The notes beneath the pieces were generated by a model, which saw only the letters and a program-made list of their open reading frames with translations, did not search any database and was not told the DNA's origin. Shown one piece after another: positions 1 to 12,155 of a DNA stretch of 12,155 bases. Where the stretch lies: positions 1 through 12,155 of the forward strand of contig JAHQWW010000118.1 of the NCBI GenBank assembly GCA_029856365.1. Direction: 5' to 3'. Made by a program: the position numbers and the translations under genes. Each line of letters starts with the position of its first letter. The stretch's first letter is position 1. This stretch comes from Candidatus Hodarchaeota archaeon (GTDB lineage: Archaea > Asgardarchaeota > Heimdallarchaeia > Hodarchaeales > Hodarchaeaceae).

Positions 1-3000
1 CTTGTGATTACTCCTCCGAGTCCCACAACAACCACGGATCTTAATGCGAGTTGGGATGACACAGACGCGGATAGCGATAGCCTTACGTACACCATTCGGT
101 GGTATATCGTGGGCGTGGGGTTGCAAGCCGCATATAACGATTTAAGGACTGTTCCTGCGAGTTCAACCGTGAAAGGCCAGACCTGGTACTATAACCTTAC
201 CGCATTCGATGGAGATACTTACTCCCCAGAAAAAAGCTCTTCCCAGATTGTCATCTTCAATTCTCCTCCTGAAATTGATTCGCTCGAAGTCACAACTAAT
301 CCTACGACCATGAATGATCTTATTGCCAGTTGGAATGCCAATGATAATGATACTATAGATAATTTGACGTTCAATGTCACCTGGTACCTTGGTGGGGAGG
401 TGAATTGCAGCTGGCTAACTTCTGTTCCTAGTGTGACATTGGACGCTGGAAATACAACCAAAAATCAGAATTGGAATGTGACAGTGCAGGCGTATGATGG
501 AGAGGTTTATTCCAGTATTCTGTCTTTAACCAGTACTATCATTATCTTCAATTCTAAACCCACGGTAACGAATCCCTCCTTCAATAACACCATTCCCGAT
601 GAGGGTGACGATTTTCATATAACTTACACCTTTATAGATGTGGATGTTGGGGATGTTGAGTATCAGGGGGAGGTAATTGTCTATTGGTATGTTAACTGGA
701 ATTATAATGCTAGCTTCCAAAATCAGACCACGATTTATGCCGCGAATACCACTGCTACAGAAGTGTGGTACTATATCGTCAGGGTGTTTGATGGCGAAAC
801 TTACAGTGATAATGTCACCTCCGAACAGGGGGTTTACATTGGGGGTGGCGGTACCAACACCCGTCCGATGGCCATTGATTTAACGGTATCCCCTACTTTT
901 CCTCAAACCCATGAAGCTCTTATTGCGAATTATACTTTCTCTGATGTCGATGCTGACCCTCAAGTCGCTTATGAAATTCGCTGGTATAGGAATTCTGGCA
1001 CAGGCTTCCAGCTCCAATCTCAGTACAATAATTTGTACATTGTTCCCGCCAGTGCCACCTCCAAGGGGCAACAGTGGAATTTTACGGTCAGAGTCTTTGA
1101 TGGTATTCATTGGAGTGAGCTCAATGTTTCCACCACTATTACGATCGCGAATACGGGCCCTGAGGTTAAGAATGCAGGAATTACTTCTAGTCCCAAAACA
1201 ACTGATAATCTCATAGCTGCTTGGACTTCCAGCGATAATGATAGTGATAGTTTGACCTTTATCCTCACCTGGTATGTAAATGGGATTGAAAACACAACAT
1301 TCGCTAATAAGACGCTGATCGAAGCTGGAAACACCACGAAGGGTGAAAAGTGGTATTTCACGGTTCAAGCATATGATGGCGAAGGCCTATCTAGTGTTAT
1401 ATCCCTAGCTGAGAACATCACTATTCTGAATACTGCCCCCTTGGCAAGCAACCTGACTCTCACAGCTAATCCCACCACTCTTGATGATTTGGTTGCAGCT
1501 TGGGATTACTTCGATATTGATGGCGATATCAGAGATGATGCTTCAGCGCGGATTAACTGGTTCAAGAACGGAGAGAATCAAACTGCCTTGACAAATCAGA
1601 AAATCGTTGGAGCTACCAATACCTCTAAGAATCAGGTTTGGTGGTTCACAGTTCGTGTATTTGATGGGGAGAACTATTCTGGGCTTTATGAGTCAGCTCA
1701 CATCCAGATCCTGAATAGTATTCCTGTGGTAAAAAACTTGGAAATTAGTATTTCAAATCCCAAGACGACAGATGAATTAGTTGCACAGTGGGATGATGAA
1801 GATAATGATAGCGACATCTTAAGCTATACTATCAAATGGTACAGAAATACTGTTTATCAACCCAATTGGGATGATGAAATTACTATTCCCGCTAGTGCCA
1901 CTTCTAAGGGAGAAACCTGGTATTATATCCTGAAAACGTTTGATGGGAGCGACTATTCCTCAGAGGAGACCCTTACACCTGGTGTACTCATTCTTAATAC
2001 CGTCCCCGTCGTTGAAGACCTTATATTAACCATAGATCCTCACACAACTGATGATCTTGCAGCTAGTTGGTCTTCGAGTGATAATGATAGTGACTTTCTG
2101 ACTTTTATCCTCACCTGGTATATAAATGGGATCGAAAACACAACGTTTGCTAATAAGACACTGATCAAGGCTGGAAACACTACCAAAGGGGAGAAATGGT
2201 ATTTCACGGTTCAAGCATATGATGGCGAAGGATTATCCAGTATAATATCACTACCAGCGAATATCACTATTCTGAACACCGCCCCAACAGCGAGTAATTT
2301 AACTATTACGACCAATCCTACTACTCTTGATGATTTAATTGCAGATTGGGATTACTTCGACATAGACAATGATCTCAGAAACGATACATTGGCACGGATC
2401 AGCTGGTTCAAGAACGGGGAAAACCAAACCGCCTTGGCCAATCAAAAAATCGTTGGGGCTACCAATACCTCCAAGAATCAGGTCTGGTGGTTTAAAGTTC
2501 GTGTATTCGACGGGGAAAACTATTCGCTAGGCGTCTACGAGTCAGCACACATTTCCATTCAGAATGCGGTACCCTATAATGCCTCTGCTCTACCCCTCCC
2601 GACGAACCCTACGAAAGCAACTGGATTAGTGTTGAATCTTCCTGCAATACTTGCTGCGCTCTCGGACCCTGATCCGAGTGATGATCTCGAAGTAGTTAGG
2701 ATTCGCTGGTATAAAGAAGGAGTGTTACAGAGTACGTTAAATGATTCATTGATCGTACCTGGCACTCGATTAACCAAGGGAGAGGTTTGGAACTATTCGA
2801 TTGTACCTTTCGATGGGGTTGACTATGGTTTGGTATGTATGTCCGCTGAGATAGTCATCTTAAACTCTAGGCCAACCATCATCAACACTTATTTCACAGA
2901 AACAACCGTTACTACCATTAGTGATCTTGTGATCAGCTTTCAAGCCGAGGATGCCGATGGAGATAATATTACTATCTCAGGGGTGCGATGGTCCCGATAT

Positions 3001-4983
3001 GAATCTCTGAGTTGGGTGCATAATGCTACGTATGATGATTATGTGAGCCTCCCCGCTTCTGCTACTACCAAAGGGGAGAGCTGGAAATTTGAGCTTGCAG
3101 TCTCTGATGATACAGATCAATCGGTATGGAGAGAGGCCGCGAAAGAGGTGGATATTATCAATAGTGAACCCCGTATTGATCCTTATAGTATCACTCTGAC
3201 AGGGGGTACCACGACCTCTGATCCTCTCCAGGTGAATTATACGTGGTATGACGATGATCCAGAGGATAGCAATACCCAGACGATTATTACCTGGGAGAAC
3301 AGTGGTGACTATCTAGAAGATACATATAGCACTACTTTGCCTGCAGAAAACACCACTGCAGGGGAGAAATGGTGGGTGACGATCACTCCCTTTGATGGTG
3401 AGGTATATGGCGATTATGTCAACAGTAAGCGGTATGGAATAAGTATCATTATTGGTAACACCCCGCCCAATCTCGCGCCTGAAAACATCGAGATTAGCGG
3501 GGAGATGAATGGTACGGAATATCAAGGGACGAGTTTTGGGACGGTCTTCAATCTCAATCTTCATTATACTGCATCCGATCTGGATGGTGACCAAGGGGTT
3601 CCTGCGTATGGGTTATCTATCGTCGATGGTTTCGCCGTGGGATCCGAGTATCGGTGGTACCGTAACCGTTCGGGGGTTGTAACGCCTCTCTCGGTGTTAA
3701 ATGATGAGGTTACTGTCCCCTTCTACTATACTCAAAAAGGGGATATTTGGTGGGTTCAGGTTCGGCCCAGAGACTTTTATGGGGACTTTGGGATGCCTCG
3801 AAATTCTTCGCAAATTTCTATTGGAAACACAGCTCCTCAGATAGCAGAGTTACACTGGGTGCAACTCACTTATTATACGACCAATGATTTGTCGTTTGGG
3901 TATACATTCTTTGATTACGATACCGAGGACGTTCAACAGGGGATTATCATCCACTGGTATCGAAATGGCACTCATCTGCCTGAATTTGACGACAATACTG
4001 CGATTGTCTCTCAGTTCACAAAAAAAGGGGAAGCATGGTATACTAATATTAGCGTCTTTGATGGCGAATCCTACAGTGCTTGGTATTATTTACTTAATAT
4101 TACTATCCAGAATTCTCCCCCGACTGCAACAAGCATCTTCATAATCCCCCTATCTCCCAACACCACTCAACCTCTGGTGGCAACATGGCTTTTTAATGAT
4201 GTTGATAATGACTCTGAAAATCGAATCGCAGTGCTCATTCAATGGTATCGCAATGGGATCTTTGTGGACAATCTCACGAATAGTCAAACTGTGCCTTCTA
4301 CTCTTACTAATCGGGAGGAAAGCTGGTACTTCACGATCCAAGTCACTGATGGCTATAATTATTCCATTACCATTTATAAATCGAATACCATTACCATTAT
4401 CAACTCGGCGCCCATCGCGGTCGATCTTCAGATCAACCAGGGGGCCCTTAGTATCTATACAACTGACTTTCTAGCTCTGACCTGGAACTTTACAGATCCA
4501 GACGTTTTTGATATTGAGGATACATCCTCTGCTTTAATCCTCTGGTATTTAAATGGCATTGAGCAGTCAGCGTTCACAAATGACACGGAGATTCCTGCAA
4601 GTTATGTGGTGAAAGGGCAGCAATGGATGGTTTCAATCCGAGTCTGTGACAATGGAGGGTTATGGAGTGAGTTCCTGAATTCGTCTCTTGTGGTGATCAA
4701 GAACTCTGTTCCTACAATTACTATTCATGGGACCGCCCATCCTGAATTCATTATAGAGGATGAAGCGTTAGAAATCAATAGTAGCTTTTATAGCTATACT
4801 GATGAAGATGGGGATGAGGATCAACCGATCATCGCGTGGTATTGCAATGAGGCATTAATGTACCAAGACATCTGGGTTCTCTTGGCCAATGATACTGTTC
4901 CAGGGGATGTCTGGTATTATACGATTCAACCCTTTGATGGCACTGATTTTGGGGTTGAACACACCTCCCCTGAAATCTCTATT
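1..4983 (+). repeat. 17 tandem cadherin/Ig-like protein repeats (first one partial), mostly ~93-102 aa
   Basis: Consensus N-x-x-P...P-x-T-x-D-x-L...W/Y...D-x-D-x-D...W-Y-x-N-G...T-x-K-G-E/Q-x-W...V-x-x-F/Y-D-G...S...I-x-I. Repeat-start Asn codons lie at 259, 550, 856, 1150, 1429, 1714, 1996, 2275, 2563, 2863, 3160, 3457, 3826, 4111, 4402 and 4702. NxxP linkers and DxD motifs resemble the Ca2+-binding motifs of cadherin-like domains. Confidence 0.88.
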
Positions 4984-6399
4984 GAGAGTCGGCCTGTGAT
5001 TCATAGCTTTGTCGCGACTGCCTTTCCTGACACCGAGGGGCACTACGAATTGGAAATCAATGTTACAGATTCTCACAATGAGATTAAACAGGTGGAATTC
5101 CTCTTGAGCCTCAATACGACCACGGGACTCTCTCCTTTCATTGTTACTTCGCCTAAGAGTCCTGACTCAACCCTTTGGTTTCTTGATTATTCTTTGGATA
5201 CGTATTCCTATCTTGAGACCCCGACTCTGGTCACGGTGACCGTGGTGACCGAAGTCACCTATTCCATCACCTATGAAATCCAATTGATCCAAACATTCAC
5301 CTTTACTCTCGAGGATAAAGCACCTCCACGTGTTCTCAATGCTTATTTTGAAATGAATGATGAGCTTAATCCCACCAACCTCACCTTTTATGCTGAGATC
5401 CAGGACTTTGGCTCAGGGATTGCAGAAGTCATTCTTTCTTATTACTTCCGCCCGAGTGACGAGCTCAACCAGACGGGGGGGAATGGCGCTACCTACCTTC
5501 AAAACGATCTTGAGTGGCTGGAGGTGCCTATGACGATTCAAGCTACCAATGAAAGCGGGAATTTCATCCTGTATATAGTAACAGTGGACTTTGTCCAAGC
5601 AACCTCAAACCTCGATATTATCTATCGGATCTCGACTGAGGATGTCGTGGGGAATAGTAATCCAGTTGCGTTTGACATTCGAGACTATCCCGAACGCCTT
5701 GAGGCTCAAAGATTTATCTATAAACCTCCAGGTTTGCCAGAGTGGGTTCTCCTCGTGGCTGGCCTGGTTATATTCGTTATTTTTATTGGCTCCATAGTCT
5801 ACGTGAAATTCATTCGTAAACCAGAGCTTGTAGGCCTGGATAAAGAATTGGTTCTGGCCAAAATCTCGGACATCACTGAGGCGGAGGTGCTGGAATCACT
5901 GGATGCCCATACCATTGGCGTGATTGTCAGCTTTTTCGACCAGAGACATGGCCCAATCCCAATTATTATAATTCCGGAGATCCTGAAAGACAATTTCACG
6001 AAACTGGTAGATCTCTCGGATCGTTCATTCAGTGGGACTGGGTTTGCTGATGACTTTGGTGTTGAGATCCCCTCGAGCTATGACTTCGTGTTGTCCCATG
6101 GGATTCGTACCAGTGTCATGTCCTTCGGGTTTGCCCTAGAGCGGCCCGACTCTAGAGGAGGCCAGGAGAATCTTACCTGCAACATTATCATCCACCAAGA
6201 TCTCTTTCCATTAGTGCAGTCCTTCCAGAACGAGATTAAACGAAAAGTCCATGCGATTCATGTGAGAATGGATAAAAATCCTTCGGAAAAAGATGAAATC
6301 CGCAAAGAAGTCTTTACACTTCGGAAATACGTGTCGTCCATTGTATTGTCTTATGCAAATATTTATGGTACCACTGAACTGATAGAAGAGGAAAACTGA
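1..6399 (+). CDS. 5'-truncated giant single-pass surface glycoprotein (>2132 aa): cadherin/Ig-like repeat stalk, TM helix, cytoplasmic longin/uDENN-like domain
   Basis: Frame +1 is open from base 1 (CTT GTG ATT...) to TGA at 6397-6399. The translation begins in the middle of a repeat with no signal peptide, so the GTG at 4 is not the true start. It contains tandem beta-rich repeats, a 21-aa hydrophobic segment followed by KFIRK, and an alpha/beta C-terminal domain. Confidence 0.95.
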   Translation, partial: LVITPPSPTTTTDLNASWDDTDADSDSLTYTIRWYIVGVGLQAAYNDLRTVPASSTVKGQTWYYNLTAFDGDTYSPEKSSSQIVIFNSPPEIDSLEVTTNPTTMNDLIASWNANDNDTIDNLTFNVTWYLGGEVNCSWLTSVPSVTLDAGNTTKNQNWNVTVQAYDGEVYSSILSLTSTIIIFNSKPTVTNPSFNNTIPDEGDDFHITYTFIDVDVGDVEYQGEVIVYWYVNWNYNASFQNQTTIYAANTTATEVWYYIVRVFDGETYSDNVTSEQGVYIGGGGTNTRPMAIDLTVSPTFPQTHEALIANYTFSDVDADPQVAYEIRWYRNSGTGFQLQSQYNNLYIVPASATSKGQQWNFTVRVFDGIHWSELNVSTTITIANTGPEVKNAGITSSPKTTDNLIAAWTSSDNDSDSLTFILTWYVNGIENTTFANKTLIEAGNTTKGEKWYFTVQAYDGEGLSSVISLAENITILNTAPLASNLTLTANPTTLDDLVAAWDYFDIDGDIRDDASARINWFKNGENQTALTNQKIVGATNTSKNQVWWFTVRVFDGENYSGLYESAHIQILNSIPVVKNLEISISNPKTTDELVAQWDDEDNDSDILSYTIKWYRNTVYQPNWDDEITIPASATSKGETWYYILKTFDGSDYSSEETLTPGVLILNTVPVVEDLILTIDPHTTDDLAASWSSSDNDSDFLTFILTWYINGIENTTFANKTLIKAGNTTKGEKWYFTVQAYDGEGLSSIISLPANITILNTAPTASNLTITTNPTTLDDLIADWDYFDIDNDLRNDTLARISWFKNGENQTALANQKIVGATNTSKNQVWWFKVRVFDGENYSLGVYESAHISIQNAVPYNASALPLPTNPTKATGLVLNLPAILAALSDPDPSDDLEVVRIRWYKEGVLQSTLNDSLIVPGTRLTKGEVWNYSIVPFDGVDYGLVCMSAEIVILNSRPTIINTYFTETTVTTISDLVISFQAEDADGDNITISGVRWSRYESLSWVHNATYDDYVSLPASATTKGESWKFELAVSDDTDQSVWREAAKEVDIINSEPRIDPYSITLTGGTTTSDPLQVNYTWYDDDPEDSNTQTIITWENSGDYLEDTYSTTLPAENTTAGEKWWVTITPFDGEVYGDYVNSKRYGISIIIGNTPPNLAPENIEISGEMNGTEYQGTSFGTVFNLNLHYTASDLDGDQGVPAYGLSIVDGFAVGSEYRWYRNRSGVVTPLSVLNDEVTVPFYYTQKGDIWWVQVRPRDFYGDFGMPRNSSQISIGNTAPQIAELHWVQLTYYTTNDLSFGYTFFDYDTEDVQQGIIIHWYRNGTHLPEFDDNTAIVSQFTKKGEAWYTNISVFDGESYSAWYYLLNITIQNSPPTATSIFIIPLSPNTTQPLVATWLFNDVDNDSENRIAVLIQWYRNGIFVDNLTNSQTVPSTLTNREESWYFTIQVTDGYNYSITIYKSNTITIINSAPIAVDLQINQGALSIYTTDFLALTWNFTDPDVFDIEDTSSALILWYLNGIEQSAFTNDTEIPASYVVKGQQWMVSIRVCDNGGLWSEFLNSSLVVIKNSVPTITIHGTAHPEFIIEDEALEINSSFYSYTDEDGDEDQPIIAWYCNEALMYQDIWVLLANDTVPGDVWYYTIQPFDGTDFGVEHTSPEISIESRPVIHSFVATAFPDTEGHYELEINVTDSHNEIKQVEFLLSLNTTTGLSPFIVTSPKSPDSTLWFLDYSLDTYSYLETPTLVTVTVVTEVTYSITYEIQLIQTFTFTLEDKAPPRVLNAYFEMNDELNPTNLTFYAEIQDFGSGIAEVILSYYFRPSDELNQTGGNGATYLQNDLEWLEVPMTIQATNESGNFILYIVTVDFVQATSNLDIIYRISTEDVVGNSNPVAFDIRDYPERLEAQRFIYKPPGLPEWVLLVAGLVIFVIFIGSIVYVKFIRKPELVGLDKELVLAKISDITEAEVLESLDAHTIGVIVSFFDQRHGPIPIIIIPEILKDNFTKLVDLSDRSFSGTGFADDFGVEIPSSYDFVLSHGIRTSVMSFGFALERPDSRGGQENLTCNIIIHQDLFPLVQSFQNEIKRKVHAIHVRMDKNPSEKDEIRKEVFTLRKYVSSIVLSYANIYGTTELIEEEN
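1150..2562 (+). repeat. DNA-level intragenic duplication: repeats 5-6 (1150-1713) vs repeats 8-9 (1996-2562), offset 846 nt
   Basis: The peptides are near-identical (LTFILTWYV/INGIENTTFANKTLI; WFKNGENQTALT/ANQKIVGATNTSKNQVWWF). The exact 35-mer tggtatttcacggttcaagcatatgatggcgaagg occurs at 1351-1385 and 2197-2231. Confidence 0.92.
4984..5700 (+). other. Two membrane-proximal Ig-like beta-sandwich domains distinct from the stalk repeat
   Basis: SRPVIHS...LEINVTD...IKQVEF and DKAPPRV...FYAEIQDFGSGIAEVILSY...YRISTEDVVGN. The second has the D-x-x-P-P ... D-x-x-SG ... D-x-x-G-N pattern common in prokaryotic Ig-like domains. Confidence 0.6.
5743..5805 (+). other. Single transmembrane helix of ORF1
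   Basis: WVLLVAGLVIFVIFIGSIVYV (21 uncharged residues) followed by KFIRKP. The positive-inside rule places the C-terminus in the cytoplasm. Confidence 0.9.
5914..6399 (+). other. Cytoplasmic longin/uDENN-like domain (folliculin/SMCR8/NPRL2-like)
   Basis: The order fits the longin topology b1-b2-a1-b3-b4-b5-a2-a3: IGVIVSFFDQRHGPIPIIIIP, helix KLVDLSDRSF, strands EIPSSYDF and TSVMSFGFAL, loop ERPDSRGG, strand ENLTCNIIIH, then two amphipathic helices. The F-x-x-x-x-G-P hairpin and the RG loop match DENN-family longin motifs recalled from memory; no search was run. Confidence 0.72.
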
Positions 6400-6713
6400 A
6401 GATTATTGCCAAGTGATAAAAAATGTATAGATAGAGTTCTTTGAATCATTCTCAATCATAACAAAAGAGCATTGAAAGCACTTAAATTCTAAGAGATAAG
6501 ACAAAAATAACCATACATTTCTGATATCTCATTTTAATTCGCATTTACCTGCAGTCACGACTAATTTATTGAAAATATCCAATGAAATTCCTCTAGAATC
6601 ACTTGATCTTGATTTTATTATAAAAATCTTGATTTTGTGGAAGGATTATCTAGTTTTATTTTAAAATCTGGGTCTATTGAGGTTTACAAAAATTCATGCA
6701 TGGTTAAGGTGAC

Positions 6714-6741
6714 TTTTTTCTTTGTTTTTTCTTTGTATTTT
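6714..6741 (+). terminator. Oligo-T tract, candidate archaeal-type intrinsic terminator
   Basis: TTTTTTCTTTG occurs twice in tandem (6714-6724, 6725-6735), followed by TATTTT, with a T8 run at 6780-6787. It lies ~315 nt past the ORF1 stop, so the assignment is weak. Confidence 0.3.
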
Positions 6742-6794
6742 AAAAAATAAGACGCCATTATCCGACAACAGGTTCACACTTTTTTTTCCATTAT

Positions 6795-6833
6795 TTTTTA
6801 TAGGGTTAAATCATTTCAAAGATTTTTGGAGAG
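6795..6833 (+). promoter_or_regulatory. Candidate TATA box and Shine-Dalgarno sequence for ORF2
   Basis: TTTTTATA at 6795-6802. GGAGAG at 6828-6833 lies 7 nt before the GTG at 6841. The region is AT-rich, so TATA-like matches can arise by chance. Confidence 0.4.
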
Positions 6834-6840
6834 TAAATAG

Positions 6841-12155: not shown

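Follow-up and report, generated by a model that had tools for sequence, protein, structure and literature searches.

The window studied here, the entire 12,155-nt contig C147 of a Hodarchaeales-type Asgard metagenome-assembled genome (MAG), raises the question of what kind of protein its two long, incomplete open reading frames (ORFs) belong to. Both frames lie on the plus strand and occupy the window, with ORF1, which is open at its 5′ end, followed by ORF2, which is open at its 3′ end. The source genome (G000) comprises 4.24 Mb in 204 contigs, has a G+C content (GC) of 35.4% and is 83.6% complete, and the encoded proteins have their database relatives in MAGs of Hodarchaeales and of other Heimdall-group Asgard archaea. 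The answer that we favour with moderate confidence is that the two frames are parts of successive members of a family of giant single-pass surface receptors, with lectin-like heads outside and a longin tail inside that couples to a small GTPase, and that the genes form a tandem run of paralogues. From the outside to the inside, each gene encodes a signal, three to five DUF2341-LamG modules, a neck, approximately 17-23 repeats resembling fibronectin type III (FnIII) domains, a membrane-proximal region, one transmembrane (TM) helix and the longin tail, giving a predicted size of 3,600 to ~4,800 residues. GTPase-activating protein (GAP) activity and ligand binding are predictions from sequence and structural models.

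We first consider the tail of ORF1, which was modelled with AlphaFold 2 (AF2) from an alignment (A1) that comprises 32 tails drawn from 13 genomes. The model has a mean predicted local distance difference test score (pLDDT) of 92.1 and a predicted TM-score (pTM) of 0.88. After two short helices it follows the order β-β-α-β-β-β-α-α, with the elements E33-42, E46-53, H55-75, E85-92, E98-109, E117-127, H128-135, H138-154 and H159-184 in model numbering. The highest structural match score, 13.5, belongs to a Lokiarchaeota longin (PDB 8yqg), followed by folliculin (FLCN; 12.6 and 11.5), Lst4 (11.5), GATOR1 entries (11.2), C9orf72-SMCR8 entries (11.1) and DENND1B (9.0); VAMP7, Ykt6, sedlin, Sec22b and TRAPP subunits score 6-8. 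The tail is structurally nearer to the GAP longins than to the SNARE, TRAPP, AP or DENN longins. An earlier note on this DNA had proposed a longin tail, which is borne out by the modelled fold and its matches to longins; as modelled, the domain is specifically a longin of the folliculin/NPRL2/SMCR8 (GAP) type.

Two short motifs of the tail are conserved throughout the family. The Gly of the GP motif is present in all 193 family proteins compared and the Pro in 180 of them, and in the model G46-P47 stands at the start of strand E46-53. The loop R-G-G-x-E-N is near-invariant among 201 family proteins, with the Arg kept in 190 of 195. A GP motif beside an arginine finger marks the longin GAPs FLCN, NPRL2, SMCR8 and C9orf72; other longin classes lack the GP motif, and the soluble Asgard longins of the FLCN/SMCR8 type possess it (PMC12290439, Traffic 2025). 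The position of FLCN R164 or SMCR8 R147 served as the criterion for an arginine finger. A 444-residue paralogue on contig C9 passes the Pfam Folliculin model with 29.9 bits (cut-off 23.3), and hhalign pairs the tail with this paralogue at 90% probability, so that FFDQRHGP is set against VFDEEHGP and ERPDSRGG against EDPKARGK. The ESM Atlas gave weak leads from the tail to NPR2 and LST7 clusters, and an NCBIfam search of the tail returned no family.

The paralogue on C9 (L018:4651-5982, minus strand; C9:52650-53981) is soluble and carries GP and ARG motifs as in the receptor tail. Its residues 248-301 resemble the PH/GRAM-like region of BBS5 (PDB 6xtb, E 0.0025), which was the sole result of a search against the PDB, and an Arf-like GTPase fusion (a 325-aa frame) lies ~4.6 kb away at C9:47503-48018. 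A second paralogue, on C49 (L017:5473-6030, plus strand), is a stand-alone tail of 186 residues lacking a TM helix; it keeps the GP motif and lacks the Arg, with SPDNKD in place of the ARGGQEN of the tails. This is the pattern expected of a non-catalytic longin partner, and we offer that identity as speculation from the motif.

The position of the domain is as constant as its motifs. The ORF1 protein ends eight residues past the modelled helices, and across 201 relatives the median is two residues after the domain. A search with the tail profile among 1.84 billion representatives recovered only 204 clusters, with the domain at the extreme C-terminus in nearly all of the matches listed, and a TM-like segment directly precedes it in 174 of the 201 proteins. 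In ORF1 a single 19-residue window is hydrophobic (residues 1915-1935, peak 2.91). N-terminal of this helix there are 63 N-x-S/T sequons, compared with 27 ± 4.4 in shuffled sequences; outside the membrane the density is 33 per 1,000 residues, compared with 7 per 1,000 in the ORFs of the genome, and the tail has two. A sequon-rich ectodomain and a sequon-poor tail therefore fit a type I glycoprotein with a cytoplasmic tail.

Complete relatives show how the two halves in the window belong together. A complete gene on C199 of the same genome encodes, within 1,293 residues, a signal, DUF2341, LamG, the neck, two stalk repeats, the TM helix and the tail. The sister species G011 has an open frame of 4,204 residues with the same order of parts and 23 repeats, and ORF1 is 79.6% identical to residues 2072-4203 of this gene (2,134 aligned columns). 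The closed genome G009, also of a sister species, has a 3,687-residue frame with 17 repeats and three DUF2341-LamG modules, and the largest complete relative in a sister species reaches 4,342 residues. In the databases, 64 proteins from Hodarchaeales and Heimdall-group MAGs combine PF13385 and PF10102 with the same tail, many of them 3,600-3,670 residues long; NCBI records name family members 'DUF2341 domain-containing protein' or hypothetical. The architecture drawn up in the earlier note is essentially right, as head, stalk, TM helix and tail share one frame in C199, G009, G011 and the database proteins. The alternatives raised there, that the heads end with no TM helix and longin tail or that the tail half has an unrelated N-terminus, fail on the same relatives, which carry both halves in one frame. 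The size suggested there (~3,900 residues or more) stands in part: relatives measure ~3,600-4,340 residues, and the gene of ORF1 would probably reach ~4,760.

The tandem arrangement is not peculiar to the window. The receptor tail was found in ten frames of the genome, the tail-bearing contigs being C147, C135, C155, C158, C90 (partial), C199, C119, C52 (three tandem genes) and C49 (the soluble form). C147, C135, C155 and C158 share one layout, in which stalk, TM helix and tail are followed by a spacer and then by signal, head and stalk; C136 and C186 carry 3′-open heads, and C90 a cut tail. A count of paralogues gave six heads and five tails, all broken within the stalk, and the recurrence of the tail-to-head junction on four contigs confirms the tandem paralogues that had been suspected. 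Further junctions were found on G011:C74 and at 337-341 kb of G009, the latter degenerate. The tails of the array genes are 74-88% identical. The heads are only 38-54% identical among themselves and contain 3, 3, 4, 4 and 5 LamG stretches. Tandem expansion with shuffled lectin heads suggests selection for diverse binding, for example of syntrophic partners or polysaccharides. In a tree of the tails two G011 copies group weakly (85/61), and the complete G011 and G009 genes have no conserved neighbours, their flanks being unrelated housekeeping genes.

The degenerate locus of G009 (G009:C1:337359-340785) comprises a tail-bearing frame of 723 aa, a piece of tail interrupted by an in-frame TAG and a 419-aa head frame; across the record start of the same contig lies a 619-aa head-only gene beside a Rag GTPase. 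These decayed pieces indicate that the family is gained and lost quickly. A divergent tail subfamily (~30% identical) is found on C52 (L020, 8552-25091, minus strand), where three tandem tail-bearing genes (a 2,971-aa 5′-open frame, 1,556 aa and 997 aa) have none of the stalk repeats seen in ORF1 and ORF2. Open frames as long as 8,821-10,069 aa occur among the relatives of this subfamily.

We then asked where the missing halves of the two frames lie. The 3′-open head gene on C135, which has five DUF2341-LamG modules, ends at position 2053 of the 4,204-aa orthologue, with its last 200 residues 81% identical, and ORF1 begins at position 2072, with its first 200 residues 74.5% identical. The two ends thus stand in the same order, 18 residues apart on the orthologue, and no other pair of head and tail fits; by our own rough estimate, the chance of such a fit among six plausible pairs is ~10%. 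The mapping indicates that the C135 gene is probably the missing N-terminal half of ORF1, and the joined gene would encode ~4,764 residues with five DUF2341-LamG modules and ~23-24 repeats. ORF2 ends at orthologue position 1717. Because the remaining close tail pieces begin at 2515 (C135) and 3107 (C90), at least 800 residues of its stalk are unassembled.

The stalk itself carries evidence that ORF1 and ORF2 are paralogues. The matches quoted in the earlier note are present: NLTLTSNPTTLDDLVAAWD of ORF2 (aa 1743-1761, nt 12067-12123) is identical at 18 of 19 positions to NLTLTANPTTLDDLVAAWD of ORF1 (aa 484-502, nt 1450-1506), and EIHWYRNNGSGFQL of ORF2 (aa 1573-1586, nt 11557-11598) has its partner in EIRWYRNSGTGFQL of ORF1 (aa 325-338, nt 973-1014). 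In BLASTP, ORF2 1533-1771 is collinear with ORF1 285-512 (40% identity, E 7e-44). An all-against-all repeat matrix, with a background of ~25-35%, gives ORF1 repeat 4 as the best match of ORF2 repeat 1 (39%) and ORF1 repeat 6 as that of the partial ORF2 repeat 3 (76%). The best match of ORF2 repeat 2 is not ORF1 repeat 5, and the collinearity of the repeats is therefore only partial. Within ORF1, the protein sequences of repeats 5-6 agree with those of repeats 8-9 at 79-80% identity, and the DNA of nt 1191-1490 agrees with that of nt 2037-2336 at 81%. This duplication gives the stalk a higher-order period of three units, so the repeat matches do speak for paralogy, as claimed, but are partly due to a three-unit super-repeat within the stalk. 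The matching ORF1 and ORF2 stretches differ in their DNA mostly at third codon (wobble) positions, which indicates selection on the peptide and not recent copying.

An alignment of the stalk repeats (A2) shows an invariant D-x-D-x-D, two Trp, an Asp and an I-x-N-x-x-P linker. The AF2 model of two consecutive repeats has a pLDDT of 92.6, and its best Foldseek matches are FnIII tandems of titin, fibronectin, tenascin, neogenin and cytokine receptors (E 2e-6 to 6e-5). Sequence profiles stay below their cut-offs, with 20.6 bits for Pfam fn3 (PF00041; cut-off 25) and 23 bits for the NCBIfam tandem-95 repeat (cut-off 90); the repeat pair, domain X, the neck and the membrane-proximal region have no Pfam match above threshold. 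The cadherin-like repeats of the earlier note are better read otherwise: by its model the stalk unit is FnIII-like rather than cadherin-like, and no cadherin is among the Foldseek matches listed, though absence from such a list is no disproof of a cadherin fold. The conserved D-x-D-x-D and the linker Asn could, to judge from the alignment, bind calcium. One FnIII domain spans ~3.5-4 nm; on this general length, 17-23 repeats with their flanking modules would extend to roughly 70-100 nm.

The same type of stalk also occurs outside the family. A complete 6,884-aa protein on C5 (1442-22093, minus strand) has 56 such repeats and a TM helix near residue 6600, and a 1,724-aa protein on C23 (24138-29309, plus strand) has eight and a TM helix near residue 1460. 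Their cytosolic tails of ~240-260 residues are unrelated to the longin tail. Given these two proteins, stalks and tails look interchangeable.

At the distal end, ORF2 starts with a hydrophobic signal or anchor (residues 4-30) and matches Pfam PF13385 (Laminin_G_3; 166.6 bits, cut-off 27.6) and PF10102 (DUF2341; 91 bits, cut-off 23.4) in three stretches each, which are accompanied by a DNA repeat family (D2) at nt 7368, 8385 and 9444. The heads on C135, C155, C158 and C136 have 3-5 LamG and 1-5 DUF2341 stretches, and the best relative of the ORF2 head among 22 genomes of the genus reaches 45-51% identity. The neck is present in every family member examined, including the short ones, with 41-65% identity across paralogues and species. 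In the head gene on C155 (L064:2-5734, minus strand), residues 579-742 match Pfam Toxin_R_bind_N with 51.5 bits. This family is another concanavalin-A-like jelly roll, and we read the match as fold-level likeness of a lectin-like module, not as a toxin. At the other end of the ectodomain, the membrane-proximal region looks by eye like two Ig-like, β-rich modules.

A link to a small GTPase, for which the earlier note had suggested looking nearby, was found beside a head-bearing gene. The genome has ~59 Ras-superfamily genes. On C136, a 309-aa Gtr1/RagA GTPase (PF04670, 92.4 bits) stands head-to-head with a family gene at a distance of ~490 nt and is followed by a 1,020-aa HEAT/TPR protein; this family gene is the head-bearing one closest to ORF2 (50% identity). 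Seven genomes have orthologues of this Rag (47-81% identity), and in each of the seven the orthologue is at most 1.5 kb from a family gene. The Rag and family genes are divergently oriented in G000, G029, G009, G011, G027 and G026, and in G005 the Rag and a 905-aa protein stand between the tails of two family genes. Among more distant Rag paralogues, none of 23 loci has a family gene as a neighbour. The trio of Rag, HEAT/TPR protein and family gene recurs in six other genomes of the genus. Elsewhere in the genome, in the region C45:11730-17387, a different 1,653-aa frame, having neither the stalk repeat nor the tail of the family studied here, stands directly before a Ras-family GTPase (C45:16854-17387, 136 bits).

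The proposed receptor would work as follows. Fast-varying in both sequence and number, the heads would bind their targets, glycans or the surfaces of partners, tens of nanometres away from the membrane, and the constant tail would couple the ectodomain to a small GTPase, most likely of the Rag/Gtr1 type. The tail may act as an arginine-finger GAP, as folliculin does on RagC/D, or as a docking platform, and it may be one member of a longin pair, like those of FLCN-FNIP, NPRL2-NPRL3 and C9orf72-SMCR8. A bolder version of this reading is possible but doubtful: the plasma-membrane surface receptor would carry a catalytic FLCN-type longin with an arginine finger that directly controls a dedicated Rag with its HEAT/TPR partner, and the Rag-folliculin/GATOR nutrient switch would descend from cell-surface sensing in an archaeal ancestor and have moved to the lysosome later.

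Several observations weigh against the receptor reading. The tail has no Pfam match at E <= 1, including Folliculin (PF11704) and NPR2 (PF06218), a profile search of PDB sequences with the tail gave chance hits only, and the C-terminal DENN domain of folliculin is missing. The conserved Arg is linked to the FLCN-type finger at the sequence level only, via the ARG of the C9 paralogue. Ras and Arf family models found no GTPase gene on the tail-bearing contigs C147 (the window), C135, C155, C158, C199, C119, C52 and C90. The C136-type Rag is present in only seven of 22 genomes within the genus; it is absent from G001, where nine tails occur, in the closed genome G009 the Rag neighbour is the head-only remnant, and related genomes are non-independent samples of the adjacency. 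Regarding the assembly, the join of C135 and C147 rests solely on orthology mapping, and no exact overlap of 20-300 nt exists between the ends of the family contigs and any other contig end.

Of the other explanations, we regard a passive envelope as rather unlikely, yet as the most serious. The proteins would then form a non-crystalline glycoprotein coat or an adhesin canopy for attachment to partners, with a longin that only dimerises, clusters or anchors them, for example to the cytoskeleton. A multi-copy, fast-evolving family with variable module number and a heavy sequon load fits such a canopy, the best structural match (8yqg) is titled as a dimeric longin structure, and most family genes have no GTPase neighbour. 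Cultured Asgard cells, moreover, lack an ordered S-layer and have complex proteins protruding from a single membrane (PMC9834061). However, near-invariance of GP and of R-G-G-x-E-N, the latter in a surface loop, in 201 proteins exceeds the need of simple dimerisation, and the likeness to GAP longins rather than to other longins, together with the recurrent Rag neighbour, suggests more than anchoring. The longin fold is also what a sorting or trafficking handle would show, recognised by a coat, an adaptor or a secretion or insertion factor as are the longins in SNAREs and adaptor complexes, with control running inside-out. The unrelated cytosolic tails of C5 and C23 on the same stalk repeats would suit such interchangeable address modules; but longins of the SNARE and adaptor classes lack the GP motif (PMC12290439), and we consider this explanation improbable.

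An assembly artefact, in which the contig is chimeric and the ORFs are not true neighbours or are halves of one permuted gene, appears very improbable. In its favour, the assembly is split into 204 contigs, with breaks in the stalk of all the large family genes, and both the ORF2 neck (72%) and ORF1 (79.6%) resemble one and the same G011 gene. The junction, however, lies in unique sequence (a stop codon, the 441-nt spacer and a signal peptide) and not in repeats, the layout recurs on three other contigs whose sequences differ, and junctions are also found on G011:C74 and in the closed genome G009. Furthermore, the ORF2 head is only 38% identical to the head of the G011 gene, to which the C135 head fits better.

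We compared the receptor, which remains our preferred reading, with known systems. FLCN-FNIP (yeast Lst7-Lst4), the NPRL2-NPRL3 pair of GATOR1 and C9orf72-SMCR8, which are longin GAPs for Rag or Arf, have in common with the tail the GP before β2 and a conserved Arg in a loop. FLCN-type complexes are also alike in their link to Rag, as a Rag/Gtr1-type GTPase adjoins some family genes. Unlike FLCN, the family tail has no DENN or other C-terminal domain, is tethered by a TM helix and is fused to a giant ectodomain. The closest structure, the Lokiarchaeota Roadblock-Longin (PDB 8yqg), is a roadblock fusion in a soluble protein and shares 13-17% sequence identity. Plexins are eukaryotic single-pass receptors whose intracellular, RasGAP-like GAP domain acts on small GTPases. 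Should the tail prove to be a GAP, the family would follow the same logic, in which a large modular ectodomain is joined through one TM helix to a GAP in the cytosol and a ligand outside controls a small GTPase inside. This is a functional analogy only; the GAP fold and the ectodomains are unrelated and no homology is implied. Giant repetitive adhesins and DUF2341-LamG surface proteins resemble the family in size, in the β-sandwich stalk and in the lectin-like distal modules. To our knowledge, giant prokaryotic adhesins either are secreted or have an anchor in the wall or outer membrane, and none carries a signalling domain in the cytosol; the C-terminus of the family, unlike theirs, passes through the membrane and terminates in a eukaryote-type longin.

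Longin GAPs and soluble Asgard longins of the FLCN/SMCR8 or NPRL2-like type have been published (PMC12290439; bioRxiv 10.1101/2020.10.19.343400; PMC10933270). The soluble FLCN/SMCR8-type forms come from the same phylum, belong to the same longin subtype and have the same GP and Arg motifs as the tail (PMC12290439). The published Asgard longins are cytosolic or fused to two-component signalling domains (the NPRL2-like form; bioRxiv 10.1101/2020.10.19.343400), whereas the family longin is the C-terminal tail of a surface protein. Neither PMC12290439 nor bioRxiv 10.1101/2020.10.19.343400 mentions a TM or surface-receptor fusion of a longin, and our literature search, limited in its coverage, found no published receptor-longin fusion. 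What appears new is the use of a GAP-type longin as the tail of a putative giant surface receptor; longin GAPs themselves are known.

Among known archaea, Hodarchaeales are some of the closest relatives of eukaryotes. Hardly any inputs or outputs are known for their many longin, roadblock and small-GTPase genes, and the family sets a GAP-type longin at the inner end of a very large, fast-varying surface protein. The tail and the Rag form a concrete pair to study, which bears on the origin of the Rag-folliculin switch. The family members are also candidates for the unexplained surface densities on cultured Asgard cells (PMC9834061).

Table 1. Features of the window, and the Rag locus on another contig of the genome (last line).
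Feature	Coordinates	Strand	Basis or context
ORF1, 2,132-aa C-terminal part of giant type I surface protein, including stop codon	1..6399	+	5′-open frame
ORF1 stalk, 17 tandem repeats of ~95 aa each (aa 6-1665)	16..4995	+	repeat hidden Markov model (HMM) built from window
ORF1 internal duplication, lag of three repeats	1191..2336	+	DNA repeat search, repeat matrix
Membrane-proximal extracellular region, ~250 aa (aa 1666-1914), no Pfam family	4996..5742	+	sequence
Single TM helix (aa 1915-1935), followed by KFIRK (positive-inside)	5743..5805	+	hydrophobicity
Cytosolic tail, 195 aa (aa 1938-2132), two short helices then longin domain	5812..6396	+	AF2 model
GP motif (within FFDQRHGPIP), loop just before β-strand 2	5950..5955	+	family alignment
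Conserved Arg (within ERPDSRGGQEN), β4-β5 loop, candidate arginine finger	6154..6156	+	family alignment
Intergenic spacer, AT-rich, ~28% GC, 441 nt	6400..6840	.	read by eye and GC
ORF2, N-terminal 1,771 aa of next family member, GTG start at 6841	6841..12153	+	3′-open frame
Head, three DUF2341 + LamG (concanavalin-A-like) modules, ~340-350 aa each	7093..10215	+	Pfam
Domain X (aa 1126-1340) and neck of ~200 aa (aa 1341-1540)	10216..11460	+	no Pfam family for either
ORF2 stalk start, 2.2 repeats (aa 1547-1771), ends at contig end	11479..12153	+	repeat HMM
Rag GTPase (6206-7135) and HEAT/TPR protein	L061 (C136) 3093-7135	minus	beside head gene 7627-12912, plus

An Rfam search of the window gave no RNA match. 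Read by eye, the spacer between the two frames has T-runs 3′ of the ORF1 stop codon, a TATA-like TTTTTTATAG at ~6794-6803 and GGAGAG 7 nt upstream of the GTG start of ORF2; it has only short patches in common with three other family junctions of the genome. Along the window, GC, which may follow amino-acid composition or gene conversion between repeats, is 41-46% in the stalk and tail region (1-6000) and 35-37% in the spacer and ORF2 head (6400-10500), close to the genome mean, and climbs again on entry into the ORF2 stalk.

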